Below, in pieces: positions 5,746 to 42,724 of a stretch of DNA of 49,663 nucleotides. Numbering within the stretch: the stretch's first letter is position 1; each line of letters starts with the position of its first letter. The notes beneath the pieces were generated by a model, which saw only the letters and a program-made list of their open reading frames with translations, was not told where the DNA came from and did no database searches. The stretch comes from Chiloscyllium plagiosum (taxonomy: Eukaryota). The stretch is taken from positions 74,940,117 through 74,989,779 of the forward strand of contig NC_057718.1 in the NCBI RefSeq assembly GCF_004010195.1, in the 5' to 3' direction. The position numbers and the translations under genes were made by a program.

Positions 5746-5948
5746 AGGAGAAAGTGAGGTCTGCAGATGCTGGAGATCAGAGCTGGAAATGTGTTGCTGG
5801 AAAAGCGCAGCAGGTCAGGCAGCATCCAGGGAACAGGAGAATCGACGTTTCGGGCATAAGCCCTTCTTCTGCATTCCTGAAGAAGGGCTTATGCCCGAAA
5901 CGTCGATTCTCCTGTTCCTTGGATGCTGCCTGACCTGCTGCGCTTTTC
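5746..5948. mobile_element. Palindromic PLE family-A mini-element with hammerhead motif
   Basis: 71-bp inverted arms at 5799-5869 and 5879-5949. 15-bp TSD CTTTCCAAATATATG at 5731-5745 and 5949-5963. Confidence 0.88.
5873..5908 (+). ncRNA. Minimal type-I hammerhead ribozyme motif (family A)
   Basis: CTGAAGA-A-GGGC[TTAT]GCCC-GAA-ACGT-C: catalytic core, stem II, palindromic ACGT helix III. Predicted GUC cleavage after 5904. Confidence 0.75.
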
Positions 5949-6035
5949 CTTTCCAAATATATGTACATCCTGTCCCTCAGGATTCCCTCCAACAACTTGC
6001 CCACCACTACCGACGTCAGGCTCACTGGTCTATAG

Positions 6036-6146
6036 TGGAGAAAGTGAGGACTGCATTCCTGAAGAAGGGCTTATGTCCGAAACGTCGATTCTCCTGTTCC
6101 TTGGATGCTGCCTGACCTGCTGCGCTTTTCCAGCAACACATTTTCA
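6036..6146 (+). mobile_element. PLE family-A mini-element with hammerhead motif (core at 6059)
   Basis: Inverted terminal stub plus CTGAAGAAGGGCTTATGTCCGAAACGTC. TSD TCACTGGTCTAT at 6022-6033 and 6147-6158. Confidence 0.85.
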
Positions 6147-7084
6147 TCACTGGTCTATGGTGCTTGTCTTTACCGCCCTTCTTAAATGGTGGCACCACAT
6201 TAGCCAACCTTCAGTCTTCCGGCACCTCACCTGTGACTATCAATGATACAAATATCTCAGCAAGAGGCCCAGCAATCACTTCTCTCACTTCCCACAGAGT
6301 TCTAGGTCCATCTGATCAGGTCCTGGCGATTTTACCACCTTTATGCATTTCAAGAATCTTGCAGTTCCTTCTCTATAATCTGGGCATTTTGCGAGATGTC
6401 ACCATCTATTTCTCTACAGTCTATATCTTCCATATCCTTTTCTACAGTAAATACTGATGCAAAATACTTGTTTTGTATCTCTCTCATTTTCTCTGGCTCC
6501 ACACAAAGGCCACCTTGCTGATCTTTGAGGGGCCCTATTCTCTCCCTTTTGTCCTTAATATATTTGTAAGGATGCTGCCTGACCTGCTGTGCTTTTCCAG
6601 CACCACTCTGATCTAAACACTGAGACATCAGTTTAGCACCTATAGCAGCTGTTGGCTGCATGTATTTAACTAACTTACCATGTCAGAAACTAGATAGGGG
6701 GCAGCATCCGAGGAGCAAGAAAATCGATGTTTTGGGCAAAAGCCCTTCATCAGGAATAGAGGCAGGATGTCTCAGTGTGCCAAACAGCAAGATGCTGGCA
6801 CCTTGGACAGATTCCTCCTGAAAAGCATGGCAAGCAGCTTGTCTGGGTCTCTCTGAGAAAGAGCCTGCTAATACAGCTATGCTATAGTCTTTGGCTCTGT
6901 CAGAAGTGCTAATGTACTAGCTTGCATGATATGGCAGGCAAGACAAGGCATGGATGTTGAGAATATGCAGAAACTAAGTGAGCAGCCCTGAGCTGCAATC
7001 TGGCCCTTTCTGTAACTGGATGTCTATCCCTGTACACAGTGTCCTTGCAACAGGCTTTTAGTACTAGTCACTGGTGGACCTTGT

Positions 7085-7845
7085 GTGGTTCCTAGGTTTG
7101 TCTCCACATCCAACGCATCATCCATAAACAATTCTGCCAACTTCAATTAGACCCCAACACCAAGAACATCTTCCCCTCTCCATCCCTCTCTGCCAACCTT
7201 TCCCTTCGACAGACCTTGGTTTGTGCCATTCTTCCCCCTCCACACAGAGGTTCACCTGCCTCTCTTCCAACCTAGTTTACTGCATCTGGTGCTCCTGATG
7301 TGGCCTTCTCTACATCGCAGAGACCAAACTTAAACTTAGGGAATGGTTCACCGAGCATCGCAGCCGGACCTGCAGGGGCTGACCGGACCTCCCATCACCA
7401 CCCATTTTAATTCCCCTTCCCACTCCCCTTCCAACATGACCATCCTTGACCTCCTCTATTGCCTCAATGAACCTCACCACAGATTGGAGGAACAACACCA
7501 CATCTTCTGCCTGGGCAACCTCCAGCCCAGAGGACTCAACATTGAGTTCTTCAATTTCAAATAAACTCCCTTCCCATCCCCTGACTCCCTTCCCAGCTCC
7601 TCCCCCTCCCTTCCACTGCTCCCTGCCACCAACTGGATTCATTCTTCCTATTGACCCAACCAAGTCATACCCTCTACCTGTCTTCACCTATCCCCACTTC
7701 ACCACCCCGCCCCTGGCACCCCCTTTATCTGCAGCTCCCCGTACACCCATGCCCATCCTGAAGAAGGGTTACAACTGAAAAGTTGACTTATCCACCTCCT
7801 CATGCTGCCTGGCCTGCTGTGTTCTTCCAGCCTCCTGTCTGTCTA
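7085..7845 (+). mobile_element. PLE 3' end: decayed GIY-YIG endonuclease, pyrimidine-rich UTR, decayed hammerhead (7758)
   Basis: FTCLSSNLVYCIWCS*CGLLYIAETKLKLREWFTEH...HFNSPSHS...RLEEQHHIFCLGNLQPRGLNIEF. Confidence 0.85.
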
Positions 7846-8399
7846 CAGTCATTCCTAAGTGGCCTGCAAGAGAATCCAAGAGGTGCCTTGATTGTCCTGA
7901 GTAGATGATAAGTGCTGAATGTTAATGTCTATGGATGAAGGCATTGCACAACTGATAGGAATTGTGCCCTGAGATGTTGCTTGGGTGCTGAGCACATGGA
8001 ATGTTTGCACAACCAGACTCAAGCTGAAGCCACCAGATTCCCAACCTGACTCCATGTCAATAATTTTTGACGTCTGACTTGTTTGACATGTTTGGTAAAA
8101 TAGGAAATGGAATATTAATGAGGCAATGAGTGTTATTAATGAGGCACTTAACATGTAATAATCCCCCTTAATTGACAGATTGCCACTGCCTTGTGAGAAA
8201 ACCACTGCACCTCTCTGCAAATGCATAAGAGGTGGAACAAAATGCTCTTGATCTCAAGATAGACGTTCCTGGACTTGTCCAATTCTGCCCCAAATGTCAT
8301 ATAACCCAAACTGCTCCCATCCCTCTTAAATTCCACCCAAGGTGTTAGTGTTGGTATCTGCTTCTGTAAAGCCATTAAAAGAAATGTTTATTGGACACT

Positions 8400-9232
8400 G
8401 ATTTGGTTTGATTTGATTTATTATTGTCACATGTATCGAGATACAGTGAAAAGTATTATTTTGCTCGCTAACCAGACATAGCATACCTTACATAACTATA
8501 TTAGAGTAATAGAACAGAGTGCAGAATATAATGTTACAGCTATAGAAAAGGAGCGAGAAAGATCAACTCTAATATATGTGAGGTCCATTCATTACAGTGG
8601 GGAGAAGATGCCCATGAATCTGTTGGTACATATTTTCAAATATTTTTATCTTCTGCCCAATGGGAGAGGATAGTAGAGAATATAATCGGGATGGGAGGGG
8701 TCTTTGATGATGTTGGCTGCTTTCATGAGGAAGTGTAGACAGAGTCAATGAAAGGAAGGCTAGTTTGCCTGATGGACTAGGCTGCGTTCACAACTCTCTG
8801 TAATTTATTGCGGTCTTGGTCAGACCAGTTGCAATACCAAGCTGTGATGCATCCACATAGGATGCTTTCTATGGTACATCTATAAAAATTGGTAAAAGTC
8901 ATTGCGGACATACTGATTTTCCTTCGTCTTCTGAGGAAGTAGAGGTGTTTGGTGTGCTTTCCAGAATATAGCATCAATGTGGATGGGTCAGGACTGTTCA
9001 TTGGTCATATTTACTCATAGGAACTTGAAGTTCTCAATCACCTCCACCTCAGTATCATTGGTACAGACAGGGGTGTGTCCTCCATTCTGCTTCCTGAAGT
9101 TGATGATCAACTCTTTCATTTTCCTGACTTAAAGGAGATATTGTTATCTTTACACCATGCACTAAGCATGTACTCTGCCTCATCGTTGTTTGTGAGCCGA
9201 ACTACTATGGTGGTGTCATCAGCAAATATGTA
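8400..9232 (-). mobile_element. Rex1/Babar LINE 3' end
   Basis: FADDTT RT motif; LYFLRRRRKISMSAMTFTNFYRCTIESILCGCITAWYCN...KLQRVV; tail ...GTGACAATAATAAATCAAATCAAA. Confidence 0.85.
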
Positions 9233-9965
9233 AATGGACCTTATCAAAAAGAAACTCAGTGATGTGAATTATGTAGTGAGTAGTCCAGACAAGAGAAAGA
9301 ACCTGCAAGTAGTCATATTAATATATTAAGATGTTATTTTGACAGGAATAATAGTCAGGATAAAATGTGTATTTTCAACACTGAAAGAAATAGACTGTGA
9401 AATAGAAACATTTGAGAAATCAGATAATGAATAAGAAATAGCAAATTCAAAAGTTGACCTTCCAACAATCAGGTTGACAAAAAAACACTAGCTATCGTCA
9501 TGTTTTATCTTCCAAAAATTATTGAGTAACTTACAAGGGCTATTATAGACAACATGTGGGAATAGGCCATGAAAAATGTTTTTGACTGTTCATGATGTTA
9601 GTGTGGGAGATAAGTTAGCTGTAGAGCAACAACCTTAGAAAATCAATCCAGAGAGATATCCTCAAGTGATAGAAGATTAATTTCATTTTTGACAAAGACA
9701 TTATTGAACGTTGCCATAGTAGCAGGAGCTTACCTATTATAACAATGCTGAAACTGAATGGTTGACAAAGATTCTGTTTTGACTACTACAAGGCTAATGT
9801 GGTAACAAAAGCGGTTTCATATCTTATTCAGATATCGCAGGATTGCATTGAAAGGTTTACATGCGTGATTTGACAAATATCAAATTGGTAAAAGGATATT
9901 GACAGGTTGTGCTAACTGAGAACAAAAGACACATCAGCTTTTGTCACACTGGATGAATTTTATCA
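9233..9965 (+). mobile_element. Decayed Gmr1-like Gypsy pol (integrase C-terminus followed by RT N-terminus)
   Basis: NGPY..KKLSDVNYVVSSPDKRK...HINIL..YFDR (GPY/F module), then VHDVSVGDKLAVEQQP*KINP...RFCFDYYKANVVTK...KGY*QV.LT. Confidence 0.7.
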
Positions 9966-11524
9966 GTGTGAAGTCATGCTGTTTAGAATTAAAGAGGTTT
10001 CCCTTCATCAGAACCCAACAGAGTTACCAGACTCAAGATGTTAACTCTGCTCTCTTCCTATGGATGCCAGACATGCTGAGTTTCTCTAGTAATTTCTGTT
10101 TACATTTCAGATCTTCAGCAATGGCAGTTCTCATTTTTTTGTCTTAATTGTGCGTAAGGGTTCTTTTGGAAATGTCTGTACTTGACCTTTTTCAAACTTA
10201 AGGGCAATATCCATAGTTTGAAAGTACAATTTTTTTTAAAAATCCAACTTCAGGCAATTCTGCTGAGGATCTTAGAGGATAATGGATGTGCAAAGCAGTA
10301 CTCCTGACAAATGGAGAAGGTAGTAAAAATAGATTCCCTTAGAACAAGGAGTTTAGTAATGGTTCCAGACCAGAAATGGTGAATAAAACCCTGAAGAAGT
10401 TATTTGAAACTGAGAATGTTTAAATTCAAATATATCTAAGCTCCGTGAAAAGGCTATCAGATTTTCTATTATGTTAAAAACACAGTTAAATTAAATCTAT
10501 TTTGGTTAGAGAAAGGGATTCTTTTCTACTAAGGATAGTACAACAGATACATTCTGAGTTCTTTAAAGTAGTACATTTGGAATTGTTAGAATTATAATTT
10601 ACTATGCATTTCAAGGTCTATAAACTTGTCATATGTGTAAAGAATTTGAGCTTGTTCCATCTTATCCTTAATTATTTTATGAAATAAATTTCTATTTCAT
10701 TGTGGAAACCAAATCGGCAACATTTTATGCTTGCATTTCAGTGACAGAACACTTCATTAAAATAAAAATAAACAAAATATGATCTATCAAGCCAGATTTC
10801 AGTCTGGGATTTGAATTGTTCAGTAATAATATCAACTCGGATCAAAACACAAGAAAATTGAGCAGCTGGTTGCTCATTGGCAGTCATGGGAATAGTAAAG
10901 TAACATATGTAATAAATTTCAGAAGTAATTGTTCGTAAATGTAATCAGAATGTCCTATACCACACTCGGATCAGAACTGTGCAAAATATGGAATTATATT
11001 GCTGGATAATAATGATTAAAATGTTCTCTTTGAATGACAGAATTCCAGCAAATTTTTAGAATTGCATCTTTTATAATTGCTCATAATGTAAACAATGTAG
11101 TGAGATATCATTCGCTTTGGATTCCTGCTCTCAAAATGTTTCATTTCTTTTATCCTCATGTCATTTAACAAGAGTTATTGATTTCTTCACAAACTCATGT
11201 TACTACTCTACCTTTGTCTCAGGTTTTAATGTAGGGTACTCACCTGTTGACAGGGAAAGTAAAGGCAAGAATTGTTGATATAATCTACTTCTTTTATACA
11301 TACAAAAGTATATCAAGAAAACTTGCTGTTGTTACAATCAATTTAATCTGTGGAAGTTGTAGTGATAATATTTGACAGGGATGGCAATTCAACAGTCTTA
11401 ACAATAAAGACTACATCATGTAAAAAGAGAAAGAGGTGAACAAGATTTGTTGTCCAGTGTTTCCAAGCAGTTTCTTTGAAAAAACTTGCATGTTATTTAT
11501 CTGATTGATATATGTTGTTGTTAG

Positions 11525-11650
11525 AGTCAAAGAAAAACTCTAGATGCTGGAATCCAAAGTAGACAAGCAGGAGGCTGGAAGAACACAGCAAGCCAGGCAG
11601 CATCAGGAGGTGGAGAAGTCAACATTTTGAGTATAACTCTTCTTCAGGAA
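11525..11650 (-). mobile_element. PLE terminus fragment with decayed hammerhead
   Basis: Reverse complement CTGAAGAAGAGTTATACTCAAAATGTTGAC followed by the same terminal sequence seen at 7780-7845. Confidence 0.7.
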
Positions 11651-12289: not shown

Positions 12290-14976
12290 AAATTTTCCAA
12301 GAAGTGTAAAATTAATAAGGCAGTGATAGTAAGGAATTTCAACTTCCCTAACATTAAATGGAGTAGTCGTAGTGTGAAAGATTAAAAGGGAGTGGAATTC
12401 TTAAATGCTTTCAGAAGAGTTTTCTGAATGAAGCTGGATGATGAAGCTGGGCAAATGTTTGAAGTATTAATGGGGGAGCATTTTGCAGACAACAATCATA
12501 ACTCCATTACATTCAAAACCTTTCTGTGAAAGAACAAGAAATCAATATCTAAACTGGGGGAAGGCCAATTTTAATAAGATCAGGTATGATTTAGCCAGAG
12601 AGTACTGGAAGCACATTCAAGAATGAAAAAATGGAGAGGACTTGGCCAAAATGTTCCAATAAAGACAAAGAGTGGGACAAACTAATTCTGTGACTCGCAG
12701 ACATGAAGCGACATATAGCATTGGATAAAGAGAAAGAAAGAAAGCTTATGGCAGCTATCAAGGATTCATAACAACAGAAGACATACAAAAATGAAGAATG
12801 TTAATGGGAAACTTAAAAAGGAAATTAAGATAACAAAAGGGGGCATAAAAGGATCACGGTAGGTGAAATAAAGAAAATATAAAGTTATTTTACAAGGACA
12901 TTAAAGATTAAGCAATTTTATTGTCACATGTACTCAAATGAGTACAGTGAAAAGTTTATAAATCGCCATTTATAGCACCATCTTAGGTACAAGGTACCTA
13001 GGGACAGCTTCTTCAGTTACAACAATAGTTACAGTGTAACAATCTCACCAACACACAGCACCAGCTTAGGTACAGAGTACCTAGGTACAATCCTTAGTTA
13101 CAGAATAGAGAAATGTAGAAAAAAAAAAGGTTACATTAGAGCTATACATAATATATCCATAGGTCAGAAAAACAAGAAGGAGAAAGTGAGGACTGCAGAT
13201 GCTGGAGATCAGAGCTGAAAATGTGTTGCTGGAAAAGCGCAGCAGGTCAGGTAGCATCCAAGGAGCAGGAGAATCGACATTTTGGGCATGAGCCCGAAGA
13301 AGGGCTCATGCCCAAAACGTAGATTCTCCTGCTCCTTGGATGCTGCCTGACCTGCTGCGCTTTTCCAGCAACACATTTTCACCTCAGAAAAACAAGAAGC
13401 AAAGTTAACAAGACAAACATCGCAGCCTCTCTCCAAGTGCTCTCTGCAGCAGACCAGCACAGTACGCCTCCACATGATCTGACTGCTCACAGCTATCACA
13501 CTCTGCCCCGACCGCTGCTGCCACAGTACGCACTGCACCGTTGCCATCATGCTCTGCATGGCATTATCCCCATTTCGCACTGGGCCACTGGTTGCTGGTG
13601 TCCCAGTTTGGGCCACCAACCCCGCTTTGGTGGCTGGGGCTGGGTGTCTGATGGGTAGCAAGTTAAAAGAACAGGCAGAACATAAATAAAAGCAAAGTAG
13701 AACAAAAAAATTAAGGAGGGAAAAGTTATAGTACAATAGAAAGTTAGCCAAAAATAGAAAAAGAGCAAATAAACATTTCTTCAGATAAATAAACAAGAAC
13801 AGAGTTAACAAAGTAAATGTTTGCCCTATAGAAAAATTAGGAAATTAGTAATGGAGGTTAAAGAAATGGCAGATGAATTGAACAGATATCTTATGTTGGT
13901 CTTTACTAGAGAGGAGACCCATAGCATCCTGGAATTAGCCATAAATCAGGGATTGAAAGGGAAGAAGGAGCTCAAGAAAATTCCGATTACCAGGGAAGTA
14001 TTACTGAATAAATTGTTAGAGCTATGAGTTGACAAGTCCCCAGGTCATGACAGATGTCATCCTTGTACCTTTAAAGAAGTAGCTCATGAGAAAGCTGATG
14101 AATTGTTTTTAATTTTCCAGAACTCATTAGTCTTGGAGAACGATTCCTTTAGATTGAAAAATAGCTCATGTAACTCTTTCATTCAAAAAAGGGAGGGAAG
14201 AAGAAAGCAAGAATCTACAGACTAGTTAGTTTAACGTCTGTAATAGGGAACATTTTCAAAGTTATTATTAAAGTTGTTATAAAAGCACTTTGATAAATTC
14301 AAGGTAATCATGCAGTGCCTGATTATCTTTTGTCAAAGATAAATCATGTTTAACTAATATATTGGAGTTCTTTTAATAAATAACTTGTGCTGTAGATAAA
14401 GGGGAACCAGTTAATGTATTGAATTCAGATTTCGAGAAATTATTTAATAAGATGCACATCAAAGATTATTGTGGAAAATAAAAGCTTGTGTTGTAGGTCA
14501 TAACATTTTGAATGACAGAAGATGGCTGGCTAACAGGAAGCAGACAGTAAGAATAGATTAGTCTTTTTCAGGTTGGCAGGATGTCATAAATAGGAACTGG
14601 TGCTGAGCCTGATTTTTTTGCAATTTATATAAATGATTTTGGTGCAGGATCAAAGCAACATTTCCTGGTGTCACAAAAATAGGTAGGAAAGTGAATTGTG
14701 AAGGTGATATAAGTGACCTACAAAGGGATACAGGTGTGAATGGGAAAGATCAGGCAAATGGAATGCAACGTTGGAAAGTGTGAAATTGTCCATTTTGGCA
14801 GAGCAAATTCTTTAAAATTATCTAAATGGTGAGAGGTTATAGAGCATGGAGATGCAGTCAGATCTGGACATGCTTGTGTATGAATTGCAGAGGTTACAGG
14901 CATAATATATAATCAGGAAACTAATATAATGTTATATTTCATTGCAAGGGGAATTGAATGCAAGAATAGGGAGGTT
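12290..14976 (+). mobile_element. Old CR1 LINE ORF2 remnants (APE endonuclease to RT), interrupted by insertions
   Basis: IVRNFNFPNI, EHFADNNHNSITF, KEMADELNRYL, NVTLSFKK, KSCLTNILEFF, WQMECNVGKCEIVHFG-like segments. Confidence 0.75.
13180..13383. mobile_element. Palindromic PLE family-A mini-element
   Basis: ~79-bp inverted arms (~13217-13295 and ~13302-13380). 16-bp TSD TCAGAAAAACAAGAAG at 13164-13179 and 13384-13399. Confidence 0.88.
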
Positions 14977-19967: not shown

Positions 19968-20535
19968 CAATGTGAAGATGCGGACCGGACACATTCTCTC
20001 CAAGCCGCGCTCCCTCCTTATGCCTTCCCAGCCCTGCACCTGAGCTGAGCTCGGGGGAACCACTCCGAAAAACCAGAGAAAACATCGCCAAACGCCAAGA
20101 AACCTGAGCTTAATGGAGCCTGGGCTTCGTCAGCATCTGAGATGAACATTTCAGATGAAGTCTATTTATCCTGAGGTGGCAAAATATTCTTTATCTCGGT
20201 AACCTAAGTAAAACAGAACAGCCCAGACTGAAGAGTTAAGAGGTAACAAGTTAGTGGCAGCAACTGTTCTGAATGAAGGAGTCAGCAATGATGAATTTGA
20301 ACATGAAGAAGTTTAAATCCTAACACAGGTTCCTGGGCTATCCTGCAGCCGCAAAGTCTCATTCAGAAAGACGAGGAGCTGCACACACTAGCGGTTGCAA
20401 ACAGACTTATTCCCGGCCGGTTGGCTGGGAGTGGGCAGGCAGCATTCCCAGCGAAGCGGGACTGACCGCTGGGAGCTGCCCGAGTAATGCACGTGTGGGC
20501 CGAGCGGCCGCTGGTTTGCCTTCCGGGGGAAGAGA

Positions 20536-21666
20536 ATGAACGAGTCCGCCGAGTGCCTGCCGCCAAACAGCGTGCAGCTGCAAGCCAACTCCAAGCATGT
20601 CAACTGCAGCGCCAAAGTGAGTGCTCCCGGAGGGACTGGCATCACAGCCTGGGGGGTGTCGGCCTCGGTTTTCCTGTGCCTCATCACCCTGGCCACGGTG
20701 CTCTCCAATGGGTTTGTCATCGCCACCATTTACCAAGCCCGCAAGCTGCACACTCCCGCCAATATCCTGATCGCCTCGCTGGCTGTGACCGACCTGCTGG
20801 TCTCTATCCTGGTCATGCCCCTCAGTATTGTCTACACTGTCAGCGGCACCTGGAGCCTCGGCCAGGTTGTGTGTGACATCTGGCTGTCCTCCGACATTAC
20901 CTGCTGCACCGCCTCCATCCTCCATCTGTGCGTGATCGCTTTGGACCGATACTGGGCGATCACCGACGCGGTGGGGTACTCGATGAAGCGAACGCCTGAA
21001 AGAGCCGCTGTGATGATAGTCACTGTCTGGATCATCTCCATCTGCATCTCCATCCCGCCTCTGTTCTGGAGGCAAGCCAAAGCCGGAGAGCTCATGCACT
21101 GCGCTGTCAACACGGACCAGCTCTTCTACACCATCTACTCAACTTTCGGCGCCTTCTACATCCCCACGCTGCTGCTGATCGCCCTATACGGGCGGATCTA
21201 CGTGGAGGCCAGGTCCCGGATCCTAAAGCAGGCGCCGAAGCAGAGCGGCAAGCGCCTGACCAAGGCTCAGCTGGTCACCCACTCGCCAGGATCTTCTTCC
21301 CTGTCCTCCGTCAACTCCCGGGTGACCGAGTTACCCAGCGAGACCGCCTCCCCGGTTAACCCCAACCACGTCAAAGTCAAGGTTTCCGACATGTTGCTGG
21401 AAAAGAAGCGGATCTCGGCGGCCCGAGAGAGGAAAGCCACCAAAACCTTAGGGATCATCCTCGGCGCCTTCATCGTGTGTTGGCTTCCGTTCTTTATCAT
21501 CACCCTGGTCTTACCCATCTGCAAGGAGGCGTGCTGGTTCCACCAGGCCATCTTCGACTTCTTTAACTGGCTGGGCTATCTCAATTCCCTCGTCAACCCC
21601 ATCATCTACACCATGTCCAATGAAGACTTTAAGCAGGCTTTCCAGAAACTCATCCGCTGTCGGTGA
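20536..21666 (+). CDS. htr1b: 5-hydroxytryptamine (serotonin) receptor 1B, intronless class A GPCR, 376 aa
   Basis: Seven hydrophobic TM segments with aminergic motifs (LAVTD, D3.32 in SSDITCC, DRY, CWLPFF, NPIIY). ICL3 ([13 protein letters not shown]...GKRLTKAQL...SPGS...[24 protein letters not shown]) and the C-terminus ([16 protein letters not shown]) match 5-HT1B rather than 5-HT1D. N-terminal sequons NES and NCS. Confidence 0.96.
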
Positions 21667-22592: not shown

Positions 22593-22759
22593 GGAATGTT
22601 TATTTTAAGACAAACGAAGCCGGTTAACGCTGCGTTTTTGATAACACTCGGTTTATATTTCTGATAAGCCAGTATTGGTAAGCAATGTTAAAACGAGAAA
22701 GACAGCTCCACAGAAGTTTTCGAAATTGCGAACAAAATCACAGACAATCTCTTCACCAA

Positions 22760-23772
22760 GTTAAAAATCACACAACACCAGGTTATAGTCCAACAGGTTT
22801 ATTTGGAAGCACTAGCTTTGAGAGCTCCGCACCTTCATCAAGATCACTTCAGCGGTCCGGGACATTCGGCCTCTGACCTTTGGCTGACCATCCTCCAGGG
22901 CGGACTTCTGGACAAGCAACACCGCAGAGTGGCCGAGCTGAGAGCAAAGCTCGGTATCCGTGGAATGGCCTCAACCGGAACCCTGGGTTCATGTCACACT
23001 ACAGGTGACCCCACTGTACCATACACACTCTCACACACACATCCACACTCCTACATAGACACACCCAGGCAGACCCTTTGTTATACCCAAGTTCTCTCTC
23101 ATATGCACACACATATACACCATCCCTCCCCCCCCCCCACCCCACTGCACTCACACCCATACACGCACTCTCTCATATGCACATATCCAGTCACACAGAG
23201 ACACACGCAAACACTTAACCAAGCTTACACACGCACACACACATTTACTGTACACACAGTCTATCAGGTGCACTCACACCCGCAGGCACACACTCACATG
23301 CACACTCGCTCTGCCATTCCGTCAGGCACACACATATAGGTTTATGGGGTGAATTTGTTTTTGCAGAATTACATTTTATGTTTCAAAAACTGCATGAAGC
23401 CATGTAAAACATCTGTAAAACTGTGCAGAGGGTTTGTCAGTTTGACTAAACATTGGGACACAGGCAGACTTCACACCTATTGTTAGAAAAGCTGAGCTGT
23501 CTTGAGAATGTAATTCGAAAGAAGTTCTAGGTTTTACATATCAAAGAACAAAAATCAACATATCCCATTCTAAAGGATGAAAGATTTAATGTAAAATTGT
23601 TTACTGTATCACAACTCCATCACACTGGACTCCTTTGGCTATAAATTCTGTGATCATGATCTTATTCACCCCAGCCACCTGATGAAGGAGCGGTACTCTG
23701 AAAGCTAGTGCTTCTAAATAAACCTGTTGGACTATAACCTGGTGTTTAACTTTGTCCAGCCCAGTCCAACAC
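22760..23772 (+). mobile_element. PLE family-B 3' end: inverted terminal copy (22760-22841), GIY-YIG C-terminus, (CA)-rich UTR, hammerhead (23679), terminus
   Basis: HFSGPGHSASDLWLTILQGGLLDKQHRRVAE...GLNR..GFMSHY across frameshifts. CACCTGATGAAGGAGCGGTACTCTGAAAGCTAGTG. Confidence 0.8.
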
Positions 23773-24642: not shown

Positions 24643-24773
24643 AGTTAAAAATCACACAACACCAGGTTATAGTCCAACAGGTTTAATTGGAAGCACACTA
24701 GCTTTCGGAGTGCCGCTCCTTCTTTGATTTTTAACTTTATATATCCCAGTCCAACACCGGCATTTCCAAATCA
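24643..24773. mobile_element. PLE family-B mini-element (truncated fold-back)
   Basis: AGTTAAAAATCACACAAC... and ...TGATTTTTAACTTT inverted ends. TSD TGTCCATGGGAG at 24626-24637 and 24774-24785. Confidence 0.82.
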
Positions 24774-26832: not shown

Positions 26833-26884
26833 GCAATCATCCCTTAAAACATCATCTGCTTCATCAGAATTTGTATGCAGTGTG

Positions 26885-27845: not shown

Positions 27846-29080
27846 CATAAGATATAAGAGCAGAATTTGGCCATTTGACCCATCAAGTCTGCTCCACATA
27901 TTTTTCAACCCCCAATCTCTTGCCTTCTTCCCATAATCCTTGATTCCTTAACTAATCAGAATCTATCTGTCTCTGTCTTAAATATACTCAATTATTTGGC
28001 CTCCACAATTCTTTATAGCAATGTGTTCCACAGATTAACAACCCTCTGGCTGAAGAAATTCCTGCCAAAATCAGTTCTATAGGATCTTCCTTTCACTCTG
28101 AGGCCATGTTCACCATATCCAGGCCTTTTGGCATTCTGTAAAGTTCAAGCACAATCCCTTCATCCATCTAAGCTCCATCGAGTACAGCCCAAAATCTTCA
28201 ACTGTTCCTCATATGACAAGACCTTACTCCCTGGGATCATTCTTATAAACATCCTCTGGACCCCCCTCCAACACCAGAACATCCTTTCTTAGACATGAGG
28301 GCCAAAACTGCTCACAAGATTCCAATTGCGGTCTGATCAGAGCCTTATATAGCGTCAGCAGTACATCTGAGCTCTTGTATTCTATTCCCCTTGAAATGAA
28401 TGCTAACATTGCATTTGCCTTCTGAACAGTAATTGAATCTGCATGTTAATCTTAAGAGAACCATGAACTAAGACTCCCAAGTCCCTTTATGGTTCAGATT
28501 TCCGCAGCCTTTCCCATTTAAAAATAGTTTATGCCTCAACTTTTCTTACCAAAATGCAAAACCTCGCACTTTCGCACACTGTATTCCAACTGTTACGTCT
28601 TTACCCACTATCCTATTCTGTTCAAGTTCTTTTGCTGCCTCCCTCCTTCCTCAACACTGCCTGGCTCTCCACTTATCTTTGTGTCATCGGCAAACTTAGT
28701 AACAATGACCCCAGTTCCTTCATCCAGATCATTGATGTATAACATGAATATGGACCCTTACAGAATTCCACTAGTCAATGGCTGCCATCCTGCAAAAGAC
28801 TCTTTATTCCTTCTCTCTACTCTCTGCTAGTCAAAAGGTAAAAACAATGACTGCAGATGCTGGAAACCAGATTCTGGATTTGTGATGCTGGAAAAGTACA
28901 GCAGTTCAGGAATACTGATGAAGGGCTTTTGCCCGAAATGTCAATTTTACTGCTCCTCGGATGCTGCCTGAACTGCTATGCTTTTCCAGTACCATGAATC
29001 CAGTCTCTGATAGTCAGCCAATTCTCTGTCTATGCCGCTACCTTATCCCTAATGCCTTGGGCTCATTTCTTATTTGGAAA
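27846..29080 (-). mobile_element. CR1 LINE 3' portion
   Basis: KFADDTK; MLAFISRGIEYKSSDVLLTLYKALIRPQLE. Confidence 0.85.
28834..29003 (+). mobile_element. PLE family-A-related fold-back mini-element with hammerhead motif (28915)
   Basis: CTGATGAAGGGCTTTTGCCCGAAATGTC. Inverted arms GCTGGAAAAGTACAGCAGTTCAGG / CCTGAACTGCTATGCTTTTCCAG. TSD TCTCTG[C/A]TAGTCA at 28821-28833 and 29004-29016. Confidence 0.8.
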
Positions 29081-30683: not shown

Positions 30684-30884
30684 TTAAAAATCACACAACA
30701 CCAGGTTGGACTATAGTCAACAGGTTTAATTGGAAGCACACTAGCCCTCCACTATTACCTGATGAAGGAGTGTCGCTCCGAAAGCTAGTGTGCTTCCAAT
30801 TAAACCTGTTGGACTATAGTCCAACCTGGTGTTGTGTGATTTTTAACTTTGTACACCCCAGTCCAACACCAGCATCTCCAAATC
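30684..30884. mobile_element. Palindromic PLE family-B mini-element
   Basis: Inverted arms of ~60 bp. 15-bp TSD ATGAACCCCACACAG at 30669-30683 and 30885-30899. Confidence 0.88.
30756..30790 (+). ncRNA. Minimal type-I hammerhead ribozyme motif (family B)
   Basis: TAC-CTGATGA-A-GGAG[TGTCG]CTCC-GAA-AGCT-A-GTG: 3-bp stem I, stem II, palindromic AGCT helix III. Predicted cleavage after 30787. Confidence 0.75.
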
Positions 30885-32744: not shown

Positions 32745-32860
32745 GCTGGCGTTGGACTGGGGTGCACAAAGACTTCACCTGATGAAGGAGCAACACTCTG
32801 AAAGCTTTTGATTTCGAACAAACCTGTTGGACTATATCCTGGTGTCATGTGACTTCTGAC
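32745..32860 (+). mobile_element. PLE family-B-related mini-element with hammerhead motif (32779)
   Basis: Inverted stub GTGCTGGCGTTGGACTGGGGTG plus CACCTGATGAAGGAGCAACACTCTGAAAGCTT...AAACCTGTTGGACTAT. Confidence 0.7.
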
Positions 32861-33936: not shown

Positions 33937-34278
33937 GTGTACAAAGTTAAAAATCACACAACACCAGGTTATAGTGCAACTGGTTTATTTGGAAGCACTA
34001 GCTTTCAGAGGGCTGCTCCTTCATCAGGTGGTTGTGGAGTAGGACCATAAGACACAGAACTTATAGCAAAAGATTACAGTGTCATGCAAGTAAAATGATA
34101 TATTTAACAAACCTCCGTTGTATATCATTTCAGTTGCATGACATTGTAATCTTTTGCTATAGGTTCTCTGTCTCACGGTCCTACTCCACAACCACCTGCA
34201 GAAGGAGCAGCGCTTTGAAAGCGAATGCTTCCAAGTAAACCTGTTGGACTATCACCTGGTGTTGTGTGATTTTTAACT
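33937..34278. mobile_element. ~340-bp palindromic PLE family-B element with hammerhead motifs on both strands
   Basis: Arms ~33945-34102 and ~34121-34278 are reverse complements. Minus-strand core intact (33996-34030); plus-strand copy decayed (~34193-34237). Confidence 0.88.
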
Positions 34279-36922
34279 CTTCTCACATAGGTTCACATCT
34301 CATCAGTTCATCAGACATTCTGAGTGAATATCTGTCAATCTGTGACTATGAGATTGAAAGCGCAGAGCCTAGTCATGCTTAGTGTCATATAATTTTTTTT
34401 GGTCTCATATGTGAACTGAACAGCTCCTGAACAAGGTGCAGACTATTGAATCTTGGAAGGTAGTTGTTACTTTGGCAACTAAATGAATCTTTGCTTGCGT
34501 ATCACAGCCATGAGTGGGATTGATTCCTAATGCTGCACAAGGTGATCCAGAATACTTGCATTCCATGGATTTGCATTCCATGCCCTAGGTTAATGCCTAA
34601 TGTCATACTAGGTTTCTTTCATCTGTATAGTATGGGAGCCCATGAAATGCTGTTGTCCTTTGAAGGATCTCACATTGCTTGAAAATGAAGACTTTTCCCT
34701 TACAGAACAAAACAGTTGTCTGGCCAGTCTGGGTATGGTGGCAGCATTTTCAGCTCCATTGCGCAGTAGTTATTTGCATTATGGTGGATGGAAACCACAA
34801 TCACACTTCATATAGTGAGTCTCAAGTTCAACCTCTCAGCCTTGGTGAACCCCCAAATGTGCAAACTCCCTTCTTCGTAGTCAATCGCATCAGCTTTGAA
34901 CTTCTCCACATTCCTACTCAACCAATCTATTTAACTCACCTCCCCACTTTACTCCCCTCTGATCCAGGCATATCATGTCAACATGCCAGATAACTTTCTT
35001 CAGACTCGAAACATTAACTCTGCTTTTCTCTCTACAGGTACTACCAGACTTGCTGAGTTTCTCCAGCATTTTCTGTTTTTGTTTCAGATTTCCAGCATCT
35101 GCAGTTCCTTCTTTTTATGATAGATATAATTTTGGACTGTACTCCCAAATAAAGCCAGACTGCCGACTGTCAATAACTTCCTTATTCTGGCATTACCCTT
35201 TCCTTTCCATTATTTATTGGCTTGCCCCTTATATATTAAGCTGCCTTCCTTCACAGTTATTATACTTTTCCATCCCATCAAGCTGCTTTTAATCCCCACA
35301 ATTGAGATCCTGGCTTCTCTCACATAGCAGTAGCTCCTGATTATTTCCTACTTGATTTTTATCTCACCAAAGACTGATCATGGCTCACCTTGACTTGGAT
35401 GGACAGACTTGTTTGATAATTGACCGGACTCCTGACTGACCTCAGGGAGATGCACAGAGTGAATTCCCATGACTCCCTGGACTGGCTGCACAAGGCCATT
35501 CATTGCCATCTTCTGGACTTTAAAGGTACAAATCCCCTGACCCTGACCACCCCATTGACTGTGCCCAAGCCCTGGACTGATATCAGACACTACTCTTGAA
35601 TTATTGTGCCAGGACACCCTGACTGAAGGATGTCTACATTGACTTGACTGAATACTGCTTATTAGACAAAGATAAGTAGAAAAGGAAATGTGAAGAGGTG
35701 GAATCGTCCTTGTCCAGTGTGTTGTGAGCAACAGCAAGAAAGATGAGGAAATCCAGCAAGAATGAGAAAATCAGAATCTCAATGTTAAGGATTTTTTTTG
35801 TACAATTTTCCTTTTCAGAAATAAATGGTGACTTCATAAGCTTGCTATTTAATAGAACAGCAGCAAACTTGTTTTTACCAGCACCTTATGAATAAAAACT
35901 CTTGATAAAGGGAGTCAGTTATTGCAGTAAGGGGTGATCATATCTTGGAAGGGTCATTAAATGAGACTTTGTCGGTAGAACTTAGGAATAAAAAGGGACA
36001 ATCACATGGTGAGGAGTGCATTATGGCCTTCAAACAGTCAGTAGGAAATTGAGGAACAGATGTGGAGTCAATTCACTAAGGAATGTAGAAATAATAATAT
36101 GGTAATTATATTAGGGATAATTAATTGAGATAATTGGAACAGGAAGGCTTTAGAGATGACAGGATTCTTGAAGTGCAGATGCATTAATAAGCAATTTTGT
36201 ACTCTAGGATTTCTTAGAGAAAATGAAGGAAGGCATGTAAACTTTTGAACATTATGAAAAGGTTCAGCAACTTGGAAATATGTAGGCTAGGTGAACTAGC
36301 CATGGCAAATGTGGGGTTATGGGGATAAGGTGGGTGACTGGGTTTGGGTGGGATGTTCTTTGGAGGGTCGATATGGATTCAATAGGCCAATTGGCCTCTT
36401 TCTGCAATTCTGGGATTCTAGAGTCTCCATTGTTCTGCTCCCTTTGCACCTGTTATTTGTTTCTCTTTTTTTTTTATCTAATCCTGAATATCCCTTCACA
36501 CCTAAGGTTTTCTGGGCTTGTTACTCCTACTTTTCACCCTAAAGGAAACATATTGGGCCAATATCCCCAGTACCCTTTTGAATGATAGAATTTACCTGCA
36601 AGTAAAATTTCCAAGTCCATTTTGGCCAGGTGCTGCCTATTTTAATAAAATCTGCCTTACCCAATTCAAAATCCTTTTTGCAGGCCATATCATTTTCCTT
36701 TTTTCCATAAAGCAAAAATGTATGGTGTTGCAGTCATTATCACTAAAATGCTTCCCCTCTGTCTCCTTGCATACCCACCAGCATCATTTCTCAGAATGAC
36801 GTCTGGCTTTGCACCATCTCTTGTAGAACCATCTACTGCATGTGATATTTTCAAAGTTCTCCTGCATGCATTTCAGGAAATCTGTCCTGCAAGTTGGACA
36901 CAATAAGGCAATCTAAACCATA

Positions 36923-37312
36923 GCTGAAAAAGTGTTGCTGGAAAAGCGCAGCAGGTCAGGCAGCATCCAGGGAACAGGAGAATCGACGTTTCGGGCATAA
37001 GCCCTTCTTCAGGAATGAGGAAAGTTTGTCCAGCAGGCTAAGATAAAAGGTAGGGAGGAGGGACTTGGGGGAGGGGCGTTGGAAATGTGATAGGTGGAAA
37101 GAGGTCAAGGTGAGGGTGATAGGTCAGACGGGGGTGGGGGCGGAGAGGTCGGGAAGAAGATTGCAGGTTAGGAAGGCAGTGCTGAGTTCGATGGATTTGA
37201 CTGAGACAAGGTGGGGGAAGGGGAAATGAGGAAACTGGTGAAATCCGAGTTCATCCCTTGTGGTTGGACGGTTCCTAGGTGGAAGATAAGGCGCTCTTCC
37301 TCCAACCGTCGT
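36923..37312 (-). mobile_element. Young PLE family-A 3' end (GIY-YIG C-terminus, UTR, intact hammerhead at ~36981-37016), truncated by the gap
   Basis: RRLEEERLIFHLGTVQPQGMNSDF. Reverse complement ATTCCTGAAGAAGGGCTTATGCCCGAAACGTCGATT. Confidence 0.88.
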
Positions 37313-38283
37313 NNNNNNNNNNNNNNNNNNNNNNNNNNNNNNNNNNNNNNNNNNNNNNNNNNNNNNNNNNNNNNNNNNNNNNNNNNNNNNNNNNNNNNNN
37401 NNNNNNNNNNNNNNNNNNNNNNNNNNNNNNNNNNNNNNNNNNNNNNNNNNNNNNNNNNNNNNNNNNNNNNNNNNNNNNNNNNNNNNNNNNNNNNNNNNNN
37501 NNNNNNNNNNNNNNNNNNNNNNNNNNNNNNNNNNNNNNNNNNNNNNNNNNNNNNNNNNNNNNNNNNNNNNNNNNNNNNNNNNNNNNNNNNNNNNNNNNNN
37601 NNNNNNNNNNNNNNNNNNNNNNNNNNNNNNNNNNNNNNNNNNNNNNNNNNNNNNNNNNNNNNNNNNNNNNNNNNNNNNNNNNNNNNNNNNNNNNNNNNNN
37701 NNNNNNNNNNNNNNNNNNNNNNNNNNNNNNNNNNNNNNNNNNNNNNNNNNNNNNNNNNNNNNNNNNNNNNNNNNNNNNNNNNNNNNNNNNNNNNNNNNNN
37801 NNNNNNNNNNNNNNNNNNNNNNNNNNNNNNNNNNNNNNNNNNNNNNNNNNNNNNNNNNNNNNNNNNNNNNNNNNNNNNNNNNNNNNNNNNNNNNNNNNNN
37901 NNNNNNNNNNNNNNNNNNNNNNNNNNNNNNNNNNNNNNNNNNNNNNNNNNNNNNNNNNNNNNNNNNNNNNNNNNNNNNNNNNNNNNNNNNNNNNNNNNNN
38001 NNNNNNNNNNNNNNNNNNNNNNNNNNNNNNNNNNNNNNNNNNNNNNNNNNNNNNNNNNNNNNNNNNNNNNNNNNNNNNNNNNNNNNNNNNNNNNNNNNNN
38101 NNNNNNNNNNNNNNNNNNNNNNNNNNNNNNNNNNNNNNNNNNNNNNNNNNNNNNNNNNNNNNNNNNNNNNNNNNNNNNNNNNNNNNNNNNNNNNNNNNNN
38201 NNNNNNNNNNNNNNNNNNNNNNNNNNNNNNNNNNNNNNNNNNNNNNNNNNNNNNNNNNNNNNNNNNNNNNNNNNNNNNNNNNN
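37313..38283. other. Assembly gap (N run), followed by a (GT)n microsatellite to ~38350
   Basis: Run of n characters. Confidence 0.99.
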
Positions 38284-38519
38284 NGTGTGTGTGTGTGTAT
38301 ACGTGTGTGTGTGAAACAGAAAGAGAGTGGGTGTGTGTGTATGTGTTGTGTGGGGAGGGGATAATTTATTCAACACTCAGAGACCTTTATCTGATCATTG
38401 ACGCACATGGAAGACAGTACCGTTCAGCACTGATGCACTCTGAATTAGCGTGACTCACTACTTGAACCCTGAACGCTGATTTACAATATTGTGGGCAAAA
38501 TGCCTCTTTAGAAAGTTCT

Positions 38520-39145
38520 AATCTGGGTTGATACCCCAGTGTAGTCCTGAGCAGGGGTGTGCAGTCAGAGGCGAATTGTTAAGAAAAAAGGTCGCATCTA
38601 TCTGGCATGGTAGCTCAGTGGTTAGCACTGCTGTCTCACAGCACCAGGGTATTGCATTTGATTCTACCGTTGGGCGACAGTACATTCTCCCCATGTCTGT
38701 GTGGGTTTCCTCTGGGTGCTCAGGTTTCCTCCCACAATCCAAAGACATGCAGGGTACGTGAACTGGTCATGCTAAATTGTCATAATGTTCAGGTTAGGTG
38801 CATTAGTCACGGGTAAGTATAGGATAATAGGATAGGGGAATGGATCTTCAGAAGATTGGTGTGGATTTGTTGAGCTGAAGGGCCTGTTTCCACACTGTAG
38901 GGATTCTATGATTCTATCCTCTCAAGTGGAGGGAGAAGATACCATAGCACAATTTTAAAGAATAGTAAGGGAGTTAACCCTGGAGTCCTGACCAATCAAC
39001 ATTGCAAAAGCAGGTCACTTGGCAACTATCATATTGCTGTTTGTGGGAGCTTATTGTGCCCTGTTTCATTGGCTGAGTAAAAAAAATTTCATTGACCGTA
39101 ATGAGCCTTGCTGAGGTTCATACAAATGTGACTTTCTTTCTTTAT
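38520..39145 (+). mobile_element. Deu-SINE (SacSINE1-like) interrupted by an HE1-like V-SINE (~38603-38915)
   Basis: Deu-domain-like GGGAGTTAACCCTGGAGTCCTGACCAAT...TATCATATTGCTGTTTGTGGGAGCTT...TTCATTGGCTG. The nested V-SINE has head, V-domain and tail. Confidence 0.7.
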
Positions 39146-39449
39146 GTATTCTATTTATTCATTAACAACTTCACTGAGGGGTGGCACTACAAACAATCCA
39201 TCTCTACCTTAATGATATTGTTGCATTACCTTGTAAGATTGACACCCAAATCTTCCCATCGCAGATATAAAGGTCTTTCTTGAAAACATCAAACCAGAGA
39301 CGGCTGGCTTCAGTCTCAGTGCAGGGTGGGTGGCTTCCAATTGTCACCTTCATGTCTGTTTCTGATTTCAACACAAGAGGAGATCAACAACGTTCGTATT
39401 TACCAGAGACGAGTCATTGAGTTAGACACTGTGTGGCTTCACTATGGCT

Positions 39450-39838
39450 AGGAGAAAGTGAGGTCTGCAGATGCTGGAGATCAGAGCTGAAAATTTCATT
39501 TCCCCTCCTCCCACCTTGTCTCAGTCAAATCCATCGAACTCAGCACCGCCTTCCTAACCTGCAATCTTCTTCCCCACCTCTCCCCCCGCACCCCAGTCTC
39601 GCCTATCACCCTCACCTTGACCTCTTTCCACCTATCACATTTCCGACGCCCCTCCCCCAAGTCCCTCCTCCCTACCTTTTATCTTAGCCTGCTGGACAAT
39701 CTTTCCTCATTCCTGAAGAAGGGCTTATGCCCAAAACGTCGATTCTCCTGTTCCCTGGATGCTGCCTGACCTGCTGCGCTTTTCCAGCAACACATTTTCA
39801 GCTTTGATCTCCAGCATCTGCAGACCTCACTTTCTCCT
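39450..39838 (+). mobile_element. PLE family-A 3' end with inverted 5' stub; hammerhead at 39713 with a G12>A substitution
   Basis: AGGAGAAAGTGAGGTCTGCAGATG... is inverted to ...CAGACCTCACTTTCTCCT. CTGAAGAAGGGCTTATGCCCAAAACGTC. Confidence 0.88.
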
Positions 39839-39854
39839 CAATTTAAACCATAAC

Positions 39855-40032
39855 CAATCCAGCTAATCTGCACATGTTTGGATTGTGGGAGGAAACCGGA
39901 ACATCCAGAAGAAAGCCGTGCAGACACAGGGAGAATGTGCAAACTCCACATAGTCACCACTCAAGGCTGGAATCAAATCCATGTCTGGCACTGTGAGGCA
40001 GCAATGTTAAAGATAGTGCCACCATACTGCCG
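39855..40032 (-). mobile_element. Diverged V-SINE
   Basis: V-domain and tRNA-like head on the minus strand. Confidence 0.8.
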
Positions 40033-42233
40033 TACAATGGGCAACATGAATTACATTGATAACAAACTCATTAATAATCATTGATTCAGCACCTATTCAC
40101 CCACTGTATTGAAGACACTGTGTTAGGAATGGGCAGGAAGGCAACAGGCTTGCCAACACTAACATTTCACACACTTCCAATCATCCCTCACCAATAACAT
40201 TTAAACCAGGGGAACATGAATATTGGTAGAAAAATCAATAGCAAAACCAAAAACACAGCAGTCATGTCATTGAACTAAACAATTAAGGTTACACAACAGG
40301 GGTGAAGGAAGAGATTTTTAAAATTGCGTTGAGACTTCATGTGATCATATTTGAAATATTTGGCAGAATTCCCAGGGCAGGTTGAGATGCAGATAGAGGG
40401 GCTTGTGTGTTCATGCGAAAGGCGATGGGGTGGAGATCTCGCTAGTGTCCTATCTTCACTGAATTAAGTCTGATGTGGGAGGTCCTGTGAATACCCTTTC
40501 GACGTGGAGTTTATTGAGTCCATATAAGGACCTCATCTGGCCACCACTGATATTCAACTCATCATTGCTGGCAGTACTGCAAATCCACTGATCTCTGAAT
40601 GGCTTGGAGCTCATGGGGGCAGGGTTTTTAACCTACTGAGGGATGAGAGACATAATGTTGCTTGTCTGATGGAAGTGGAGATGGATCCTGATTTGAATTA
40701 AATAGTATTGGCCCTTTTGGAGATTAGCAATAGAGGCTTCTCAATGGTTTTTTGACTGGTGGGTGAGATTGTTATTTCCCATATTAAATACGAACCATTT
40801 TGTCATGTTAGAGTACATTTACCTCACCAGCGGTATTATATATCAAAGAGTTTGTTAAGATACGATATATATTTCATCATGCTTTTGGGTAATGCTTTGG
40901 GACATTGCCCACATTAATGGAACTATATAAATGAAAATTGATTTAAACTTTAATATTAATGAATGCTCAGATGCATTAAAAAGCAATTCTGTGCTCTGGG
41001 ATTTCTTAGAGAAAATGAAAGAAGGCATGTGGAACCTTTGAAGGTTATGAAAATATTCAGCAAGTTGGAAGCATATACATTTTCTAACTATTGGTGCTGA
41101 CTCCAAATATATATGTCACATGTTGCATCATGTAAATTTGGCTACAAAGTGTATCATTTGTGAAAGATTGACCAACTAGCTTTCTTGTTCCTTGCTTTCG
41201 TAACATTAATTCTATTAGGAGTGGAAATTGAACATTTACAATAAATGACAATGATTAATTTACTACTTCAACTGGAGCATTAACAAATTTGTGAGTTGTC
41301 AGATAAAGGAACCTGGTGGTTGTGACAGAACTGCTGTAATGCCATTGTAAATAAATTCAAAAATTATAGACTTGAATTACAAGAGTAATTCCTCCCTCAC
41401 AATATGATGTGAAAATGTGAATTGTTGGCCACCGAAATTTCAATGACCCAGCTCCAATGACAGAACAGGGGAGGCAGGGGCCTGCGCAAGTGAAGTGTAT
41501 TCTTGCCTAGAGAATCTGACCCTATCCCCAAATGCCTAAACAGGAAGGACTGCCAGCAGAGATCATTGCTAAGGAATAATACTGTATAATTTACAATTAT
41601 TTTGTATTCTAAGTCACTGCATATGTCTACACCTATCTACAATTTACTGATATCAATCTACAGTAAACACTGACCCATGGTATGTTGCTTTAAATCTATT
41701 GTGGACAAAAACCTGGCATCTATTGCTATAAATGTTTGGTAGACATTCACTTCTTATATGTTGACATAAATTGATGATGAACACCAACCTAGCATAGGCT
41801 GGTATAAATTTAAAGAACCCACTGCTCTGACATGTACTGACATAAATCTGTGGTGGACACCTATCTAACTGATATTCCCATTCTTAAGAGAAGTAGGCAA
41901 TGATCAGTGTCACAGTAAGAAAACTACAGGCTCAAAAATAATAGAACAAGTATGAAATTGCTTAAATTTTTCTTTATAAAATGGTGCAGAAGGAAACACA
42001 ATGATTTATTCATTTCATCTAATCACTAGTAAGGTCAGGGAAGTGTGCTGTTTGATGTATAAATATTGTATTGTATCTGTGTCCCAGTGTAATGCTCATG
42101 GGTCATGAATTCAAATCCTACCACCTCAGCTGGTGGAACTTAAAGTTAATTAATAATTCTGGAATTGAAAGCTAGGGCAGAATTTTTCCAGCCCCTGAAC
42201 AACGTGGTCAATGACAAGTCAGTGGGAAAATAC

Positions 42234-42439
42234 GCTGAAAATGTGTTGCTGGAAAAGCGCAGCAGGTCAGGCAGCATCCAAGGAGCAGGAGAATCGATGT
42301 TTCGGGCATGAGTGTGAAGAAGGGCTCATGCCCGAAACGTCGATTGTCCTGCTCCTTGGATGCTGCCTGACCTGCTGCGCTTTTCCAGCAACACATTTTC
42401 AGCTCTGATCTCCAGCATTTGCAGTCCTCACTTTCTCCT
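42234..42439. mobile_element. Palindromic PLE family-A mini-element
   Basis: ~79-bp inverted arms. 13-bp TSD AGTGGGAAAATAC at 42221-42233 and 42440-42452. Confidence 0.88.
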
Positions 42440-42724
42440 AGTGGGAAAATACAGCAAGAATGGAAAAATTAAATCTTCGATAAATAATTCCCACTCTGTG
42501 TGTAAGATTTTAATGGCAAGATTAGAAACTTGCTTGTGAGCAGTAAAAAGCCTATGTGCATACATTAACATCCCAATACTTAATCTTGCCTCATTTATAT
42601 GTAGTTTGCTATTTCCCAGACAGTAAAGAGAAACTAAATGGCACCAGTTCTCGTCATGAAAATCTGAGTGAGTAGCTGATGGCTGCAATTTACTAGTGTC
42701 TTCTCTGGGCATCCAGAGAATGAA

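Follow-up and report, generated by a model that had tools for sequence, protein, structure and literature searches.

Penelope-like elements (PLEs) that bear an endonuclease (EN) insert as units with an inverted copy of their pseudo-long terminal repeat (pseudo-LTR) and a tail of 30-40 bp (PMC3846280, PMC8557442). How the inverted repeat and the tail are formed is stated to be open (PMC8557442, PMC11167929). For Poseidon, a PLE of the anole, both target strands are nicked and extended in vitro and two internal start sites bracket the tail; ribozyme cleavage is not required and the enzyme is predicted to be a dimer (PMC11167929). Minimal hammerhead ribozymes of metazoans are mostly dispersed single motifs, with opposite-strand pairs 100-700 bp apart in Schistosoma (PMC4209133). 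Here we analyze short hammerhead-bearing inserts in a 49,663-nucleotide stretch of the genome of the shark Chiloscyllium plagiosum (contig NC_057718.1 of assembly GCF_004010195.1, positions 74,940,117 to 74,989,779), which we call the window. The inserts are head-to-head pairs of PLE ends that arise anew at each insertion, and each arm is probably a run-off complementary DNA (cDNA) from the capped 5' start of the element RNA.

The earlier note on this DNA, which was made from its letters alone, had listed eight insertions, all of which are present. They are made of two repeat ends (families A and B), and each maps as two arms of a single repeat end, the first antisense and the second sense. 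Arms were assigned by mapping onto real reference copies (for family A, 39450-39838), and arm positions take the opening base of the hammerhead core (C3) as 0. The eight inserts and one annotated core are as follows.

5746-5948: family A head-to-head pair within a CR1-like copy; antisense arm with tail at 5746-5869 (+125 to +2), filler TG, sense arm at 5872-5948 (-5 to +72); 15-bp target duplication at 5731-5745 / 5949-5963
5877-5904, + strand: minimal type I hammerhead core with a bulged A, a 4-bp helix II and a palindromic ACGU replacing helix III, cut predicted 3' of 5904; features as in PMC4209133
6036-6146: family A inversion whose arms do not cover the same bases; an inverted tail piece of about 19 bp meets a sense arm (-5 to +87) at a 2-base overlap; 12-bp duplication at 6022-6033 / 6147-6158; in the same CR1-like copy as 5746-5948
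13180-13383: family A pair flanked by a 16-bp duplication; the arms span +125 to +8 and about 0 to +90, and the core is broken
24643-24773: family B pair without a complete core; the arms span about +88 to +5 and +73 to +120; 12-bp duplication plus 5 filler bases
28834-29003: pair of an older A subfamily inside an old CR1-like copy, with the core at 28915; the first arm covers +127 to +52 and the second 0 to +94; 13-bp duplication (1 mismatch)
30684-30884: family B pair with its core at 30759, flanked by a 15-bp duplication; the arms span +88 to +25 and -16 to +120
33937-34278: older, long family B pair; arms +92 to -83 and -73 to +84; both arms tailless
42234-42439: family A pair flanked by a 13-bp duplication; the arms span +89 to +11 and +1 to +125, and the core is broken

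The target-site duplications (TSDs) of 12-16 bp that had been reported for seven inserts are borne out; for 33937-34278 a direct repeat next to the insert was sought and none was adjacent. With unrelated flank pairs, such a flank repeat arose in 38 of 4000 trials, and for old copies the duplication finder was relaxed and given a fresh null. The inserts are palindromic in general, as described, with the exception of 6036-6146, in which the inverted tail and the sense arm do not overlap. Several inserts had been said to split a CR1 frame: a CR1-like host repeat is demonstrated for three of the eight via uninterrupted homologues (28, 22 and 2 collinear hits), two of them in one decayed copy (the empty-site query for 6036-6146 was set 5 bases off, which leaves the CR1 match unaffected). 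The insert at 28834-29003, assigned to family A in the earlier note, belongs to an older subfamily of it. The palindromes had also been considered as possible assembly artefacts. This does not hold, since the arms are 77-99% complementary in the window inserts, except for one 28-bp stretch at 100%, and since raw reads of a public RNA run (4 and 3 reads) show opposite-strand joints at the same boundary, 39709, as do contigs of two other runs.

On sequence grounds, both families are assigned to the ends of PLEs that encode a reverse transcriptase (RT) and a GIY-YIG endonuclease, in agreement with the earlier note. The link to coding elements comes from loci fetched from elsewhere in the 3.56-Gb genome (designated L plus a number). 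At L191, an 893-codon open frame with an RVT_1 domain is followed by an untranslated region (UTR), a hammerhead and an A-type tailless end; its GIY-YIG score is 21.2 bits, slightly below the cut-off of 22.6. For family B the coding link is to the endonuclease region only: at L110 a GIY-YIG-type frame lies on a family B arm and is 31% identical to L191 over 142 residues. Two short endonuclease pieces went unrecognised by Pfam. A CxxxxCxxC motif precedes GIY-YIG in both L191 and L110, and a CxxC linker is a mark of the Neptune and Nematis clades (PMC8557442). By this linker both families would fall in with the Neptune group, unlike Poseidon. The nearest named RT relatives are from carpet sharks, and relatives of the RT segment at L087 7833-8177 are labelled bamboo, whale and zebra sharks, rays and skates, so the family is widespread in cartilaginous fishes. 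The units resemble EN-bearing PLEs in having an RT with a C-terminal GIY-YIG, a head-to-head inverted copy, a tail at one end, a target duplication and a palindrome at the junction. The head-to-head architecture with a tail is thus of a kind already published. What differs is that most young inserts are only a 95-130 base end piece, in very high copy number.

Two further joints were noted. At L191 (oriented 1186-1703) the 5' junction of the long copy carries about four tandem 120-bp repeats, through which the frame stays open. At L158 (about 700-1100) endonuclease-coding sequence is fused directly to position -1 of the hammerhead, so that both the UTR and the last part of the frame are missing; this joint is possibly the jump of a short cDNA onto the interior of the RNA, or a later deletion.

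The earlier note described the inserts as centred on a hammerhead motif. The complete catalytic core is kept in four of the eight (at 5877, at 6059 with a stem mismatch, at 28915 and at 30759). One arm of 33937-34278 also contains a core, which has a mismatched stem and lies some 80 bp off centre, and in the remaining three inserts the core is partly missing. A minimal-hammerhead descriptor matched 35 times in 583 kb of random genome sequence, versus 0-1 times per shuffle (20 shuffles). Across 43 descriptor matches, the bulge A occurs in 42, a G-C or G-T closing pair in 41, and CG or GC at 15.2-16.2 in 30. The first two pairs of helix I differ between the families, and are still paired in most. 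Judged by these features, the motif qualifies as the minimal hammerhead of metazoan PLEs (PMC4209133), with which it agrees in the core, the bulge, the G-C closing pair and the palindromic positions 15.2-16.2; helix II measures 4-5 bp in the shark motif. The excerpts of that paper tie the single motifs to truncated elements and give no mechanism. Rfam searches of the inserts returned no hammerhead family, only weak miRNA-hairpin matches, and unconstrained folding did not yield the full ribozyme fold. The predicted cut lies between +27 and +28 in family A and between +28 and +29 in family B.

To estimate abundance we counted exact motifs (27,723 young A and 10,248 B) and sampled 60 evenly picked 10-kb stretches from the 39 largest contigs (583,297 called bases). 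This random sample contains 29 inverted pairs, all 29 head-to-head; 25 of those with readable flanks are no longer than 350 bp. Short pairs therefore occur at about 43 per Mb (an interval of 26-61 per Mb was calculated for 24 pairs), which extrapolates to some 150,000 genome-wide. Frequencies of ends and tails come from 66 young A insertions, namely 30 pairs and 36 single arms, which span the first 73 of the 100 young A matches listed. Loci L002-L030 and L092-L120, picked by likeness to window copies, were excluded from frequencies, and L002-L030 were included in the count of arm agreement below. Neighbouring A motifs within 250 bp of each other are head-to-head in 26 of 28 cases; the family B motif gave 3 such pairs only and was not used. 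In the 21 family B pairs listed, matches lie 60-99 bp apart in 12 and 176-3,667 bp apart in 9 (by eye). The stub layout also occurs at larger scale, in head-to-head B pairs with arms of 500-1,100 bp at L110 (about 1500-3137) and L120.

The outer ends are bimodal, at about +90 and +125 in family A and about +85 and +120 in family B, so that one arm carries a tail of about 35 bp. The earlier observation that one arm runs further than the other is therefore accounted for by the published 30-40 bp tail. Among the 30 young A pairs, 27 have one tail, 2 have both and 1 has neither (p = 4e-6 versus independent choice). Duplications were found in 26 of the 30 young pairs and in 16 of the 25 random short pairs, and are 12-17 bp long across pairs. 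MITEs, which are mobilised by a DDE transposase, have symmetric terminal inverted repeats and a fixed short duplication. The inserts here differ from them in the tail and in the duplication length. The earlier reading of target-primed insertion, and not a DDE transposase, is supported. In the Poseidon system the start sites are 111-118 bases past the stem II start (PMC11167929), and the tail ends in the shark are 118 (A) and 113 (B) bases past it. Immediately after the tail a preference fades over about four positions, in family A C 0.97, T 0.76, C 0.55, A 0.47, and in family B A 0.92, T 0.68, G 0.60, A 0.52, the latter spelling a possible start codon. This suggests short primer-template pairing or a target preference.

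The inner ends form a sharp cliff just upstream of the core. Out of 96 inner ends, 74 lie at -10 to +16, none at -30 to -11 and one at +24 to +32, with 6 beyond +31 and 15 upstream of -30 (two of the latter are alignment overrun). The stops coincide with the A of an initiator-like CA located 4 bases (family A) or 8 bases (family B) upstream of the core. In family A the context of the stop fits the vertebrate initiator consensus. Breakpoints set by stem II, near which the earlier note had placed them, or by cleavage are not what is found, and because the inner ends are not at the predicted ribozyme cut the copied RNA was uncut, in agreement with the finding that cleavage is not needed (PMC11167929).

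The base that precedes the stop is enriched in G. In family A the -5 base is non-native at 5,724 loci, and among the matches listed (100 of 5,724) it is G in 65, A in 20 and T in 15, where 26% G is expected. The control positions, each with 100 listed matches from its own search, have 13 G of 100 (-4) and 19 G, 19 A and 62 C (-6). For junctions inside A pairs, the matches listed (100 of 1,746) represent 94 distinct loci, with a GA overlap in 38 + 7, a G overlap in 2, an AT overlap in 20, a blunt joint in 3 and filler in 24. G or GA overlaps thus make up 47 of the 94, in a count in which both-strand matching over-samples the AT class; the final base of the 24 fillers is G in 16, A in 4 and T in 4. 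In family B, 45 of the matches listed (100 of 2,076) reach -8, and the preceding base is G in 26 (8 of them within filler), the native C in 19 and A or T in none. The target site alone was considered as a source of the G and is ruled out by the G at junctions inside pairs. A spliced template was likewise ruled out, there being no AG acceptor and no common upstream exon.

An untemplated G at the ends of full-length L1 and SVA copies, similar to that seen here, has been ascribed to cap copying (PMC3287187), and transcription of Drosophila Penelope begins inside the repeat, from an internal promoter (PMC2377424). What is new here is a position-specific G signature, present in two families. The sharp inner boundary and the extra G are not reported in the excerpts of PMC3846280 and PMC8557442, and those of PMC11167929 do not treat 5' junctions, cap copying or the formation of inverted pairs. 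In the literature searched, subscription journals mostly aside, we found no account of a cap-derived G or of strong-stop products in PLEs, and nothing on these shark families.

The hairpins do not re-transpose; pairs arise anew with each insertion. The commonest junction is asymmetric, and the tail is on its G-bearing arm at 667 loci and on the opposite arm at 737, on several subfamily backgrounds. A single master hairpin would fix the side of the tail, and both sides are seen. Moreover, 26 of 30 sampled junction strings differ. These results support recurrent de novo formation, the option that the earlier note preferred, and contradict its other option, a retrozyme-like family of hairpin RNAs. 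The inserts do share with non-LTR retrozymes (PMC7229834; bioRxiv 10.64898/2026.07.22.740005) that they are short, non-coding, hammerhead-bearing and related to PLE repeats. Retrozymes, however, are head-to-tail tandem repeats that give rise to circles, whereas the inserts occur singly or head-to-head, and in them the sequence across the predicted cut is still intact. At subfamily-diagnostic sites the two arms of a pair agree in 87 of 92 cases (49 pairs; shuffles give a mean of 60% and a maximum of 72%). The arms do not overlap in 3 of the 30 pairs and in 6036-6146, and meet near +90 to +100. Taken with the one tail per pair and the agreement between arms, the non-overlapping pairs indicate that one RNA is read twice.

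In L1 twin priming the second target strand primes a second cDNA, and the ends join by short overlaps. L1 arms are non-overlapping and begin at poly(A), whereas the two arms of a shark pair usually cover the same stretch and begin at two fixed sites inside the RNA. We consider it fairly probable that the inserts are de novo head-to-head PLE ends in which each arm is a run-off cDNA from the capped RNA 5' start, formed in four steps. Transcription would begin in the terminal repeat at the initiator-like CA, at -4 (A) or -8 (B). The element protein would then nick both target strands and start reverse transcription from two sites within the RNA that are separated by about 35 bases, a double priming that is known from the anole element in vitro and that we infer for the shark. 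Where priming takes place in the repeat nearest the RNA start, both enzymes would run off after 95-130 bases, often copying the cap and so adding a G. Finally, the two cDNA ends would be joined by overlaps of 1-4 bases, trimming or filler; the junction sequences are observed, and the joining process would be the step that connects them. Retention of a single cDNA would leave a single stub, and priming further downstream would give longer arms. The ribozyme motif would be a passenger, with the copied RNA uncut, and the stubs are probably dead ends.

Several observations weigh against this explanation. A protein search of the genome and 12 fetched loci were used to look for a full-length 5' end, in an assembly that is gapped in long young copies. 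The 12 long copies, all truncated or gapped, lack a repeat upstream of the reading frame, and the sequence behind 121 tail ends is only unrelated or duplicated flank, with no common element sequence. As no full-length source copy was found, the source transcript is assumed. In one informative single-cell RNA run there is no pile-up of molecule starts; 93% of its aligned reads extend into unlike sequence, so they are mostly read-through of genomic copies. The family B stop is only a partial initiator match, and the family A stop at -4 is also the first base of helix I, where a ribozyme-related cause is possible. The G counts were made by eye, from the 100 rows listed per search. In single stubs the G often lies within the target duplication as well (L141, L167, L179), which is why the junctions inside pairs were inspected. 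Five of the 92 diagnostic sites differ between arms, one of them in 5746-5948, and the agreement at the others could also be due to gene conversion, or to subfamilies having had separate periods of activity.

Of the alternatives, the one that survives best keeps the same chemistry and changes the template, to a short capped read-through RNA from the 3' repeat or from stubs, so that stubs would be SINE-like parents of further stubs. Both priming sites and the inferred start are indeed present in every stub that reaches -4, long copies are far fewer than stubs (the sense arm enters the UTR in 11 of the 66 insertions), and the full-length 5' end was not found. We nevertheless judge it unlikely. 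The anole element requires RNA extending to +172 of the reading frame, which is beyond the start sites at 111-118 (PMC11167929), and the inserts contain no such downstream part. Identical subfamily variants occur in long copies and in stubs, and the 3-4 base preference after the tail fades as if the template went on.

Less likely still is that one cDNA folds back, primes its own copying as far as about +90 and is then taken up by the second target strand; self-priming is how head-to-head palindromes in rotifer elements have been read (PMC3846280). The variants shared by the arms (87 of 92) would follow from it, as would the small duplicated pieces of stem II at some junctions. The loops speak against it: in family A the two most frequent kinds of junction (38 and 20 of the 94) would form loops of 1 and 0 bases, too small for self-priming, and family B contains perfect palindromes with no spacer. 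In addition, the G-bearing arm is tailed or tailless about equally, and the non-overlapping pairs would need a second priming event. The terms 'fold-back' and 'extreme 5' truncation' of the earlier note are therefore probably the wrong words, and the ends look like run-off at an RNA 5' end.

We regard as about equally improbable that the inserts are ordinary 5' truncations primed from the 3' repeat, with stalling at the folded ribozyme or at a non-canonical RNA end and a non-templated G. The long arms show that priming in the 3' repeat happens, and the family A cliff is at the first base of helix I. An enzyme moving 3' to 5', however, would hit the ribozyme at about +31 and not at -4, and the G enrichment is confined to one position. 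The offset of the cliff differs by family (-4 and -8), yet both have CA, and the lack of an AG before either site means that it is not a splice acceptor. That the inserts are a non-autonomous, retrozyme- or MITE-like family of hairpin RNAs from a few master palindromes is scarcely credible and already largely refuted: some junctions recur at hundreds of loci, but the same asymmetric junction has its tail on either side (667 and 737) in several subfamilies, pair spacing is continuous (in family B from 60-99 to 176-3,667 bp among pairs listed), the window has no head-to-tail tandem array of these units, and the duplications, at 12-17 bp, have no fixed short length.

The window contains members of the two families beyond the eight inserts, among others the following.

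39450-39838: family A; 45-bp inverted tail piece and a long sense arm (-216 to +125)
36919-37290, - strand: young family A copy; end of the GIY-YIG frame, 3' UTR, hammerhead and tailless end; enters an N gap
43950-45015 (start approximate), + strand: decayed A-type PLE copy, broken at 44683-44809, that retains the CxxC linker, the GIY-YIG region, a remnant of the hammerhead and the tail
22755-23074: family B; a short arm in antisense (+88 to +1) is fused to internal element sequence (-732 to -495)
47114-47219, + strand: single family A arm (+4 to +109)

An additional internal piece of the family A reading frame lies at 856-1206 (- strand). A 127-bp inverted repeat, 96% complementary, is formed by 44683-44809 and 45172-45298; one of its arms breaks the old PLE copy and the other lies beyond the tail of that copy. 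At least 1,256 bases at 38285-39540, adjoining an N gap of the window, are 100% identical to L059 8745-10000 on another contig, either by recent duplication or by assembly misplacement. At 20488-21666 (+ strand) there is an unbroken 392-codon frame for a rhodopsin-family receptor (Pfam 7tm_1), which may be of the serotonin 5-HT1B type.

Genome annotation can mistake such pairs for MITEs or miRNA hairpins. With respect to PLE biology, each short pair records one reaction, and the pairs yield sharp predictions that the in vitro system already available can address: that the RNA has a capped start at a specified base, that each pair has a single tail, and that two cDNAs are joined. We propose tentatively, rating it a little short of an even chance, that PLEs make a genomic counterpart of retroviral strong-stop DNA, in which a dimeric enzyme primes twice on the 5' repeat of a single capped RNA and the abortive pair of products is sealed head-to-head. 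A jump of the short cDNA to the downstream part of the RNA could rebuild the terminal repeats. If the proposal is true, the strong-stop reaction would account for the tail and the inverted repeats as well as for the abundance of solo hammerheads in the genomes of animals, and genome sequence alone would suffice to read the start site of any element of this kind.

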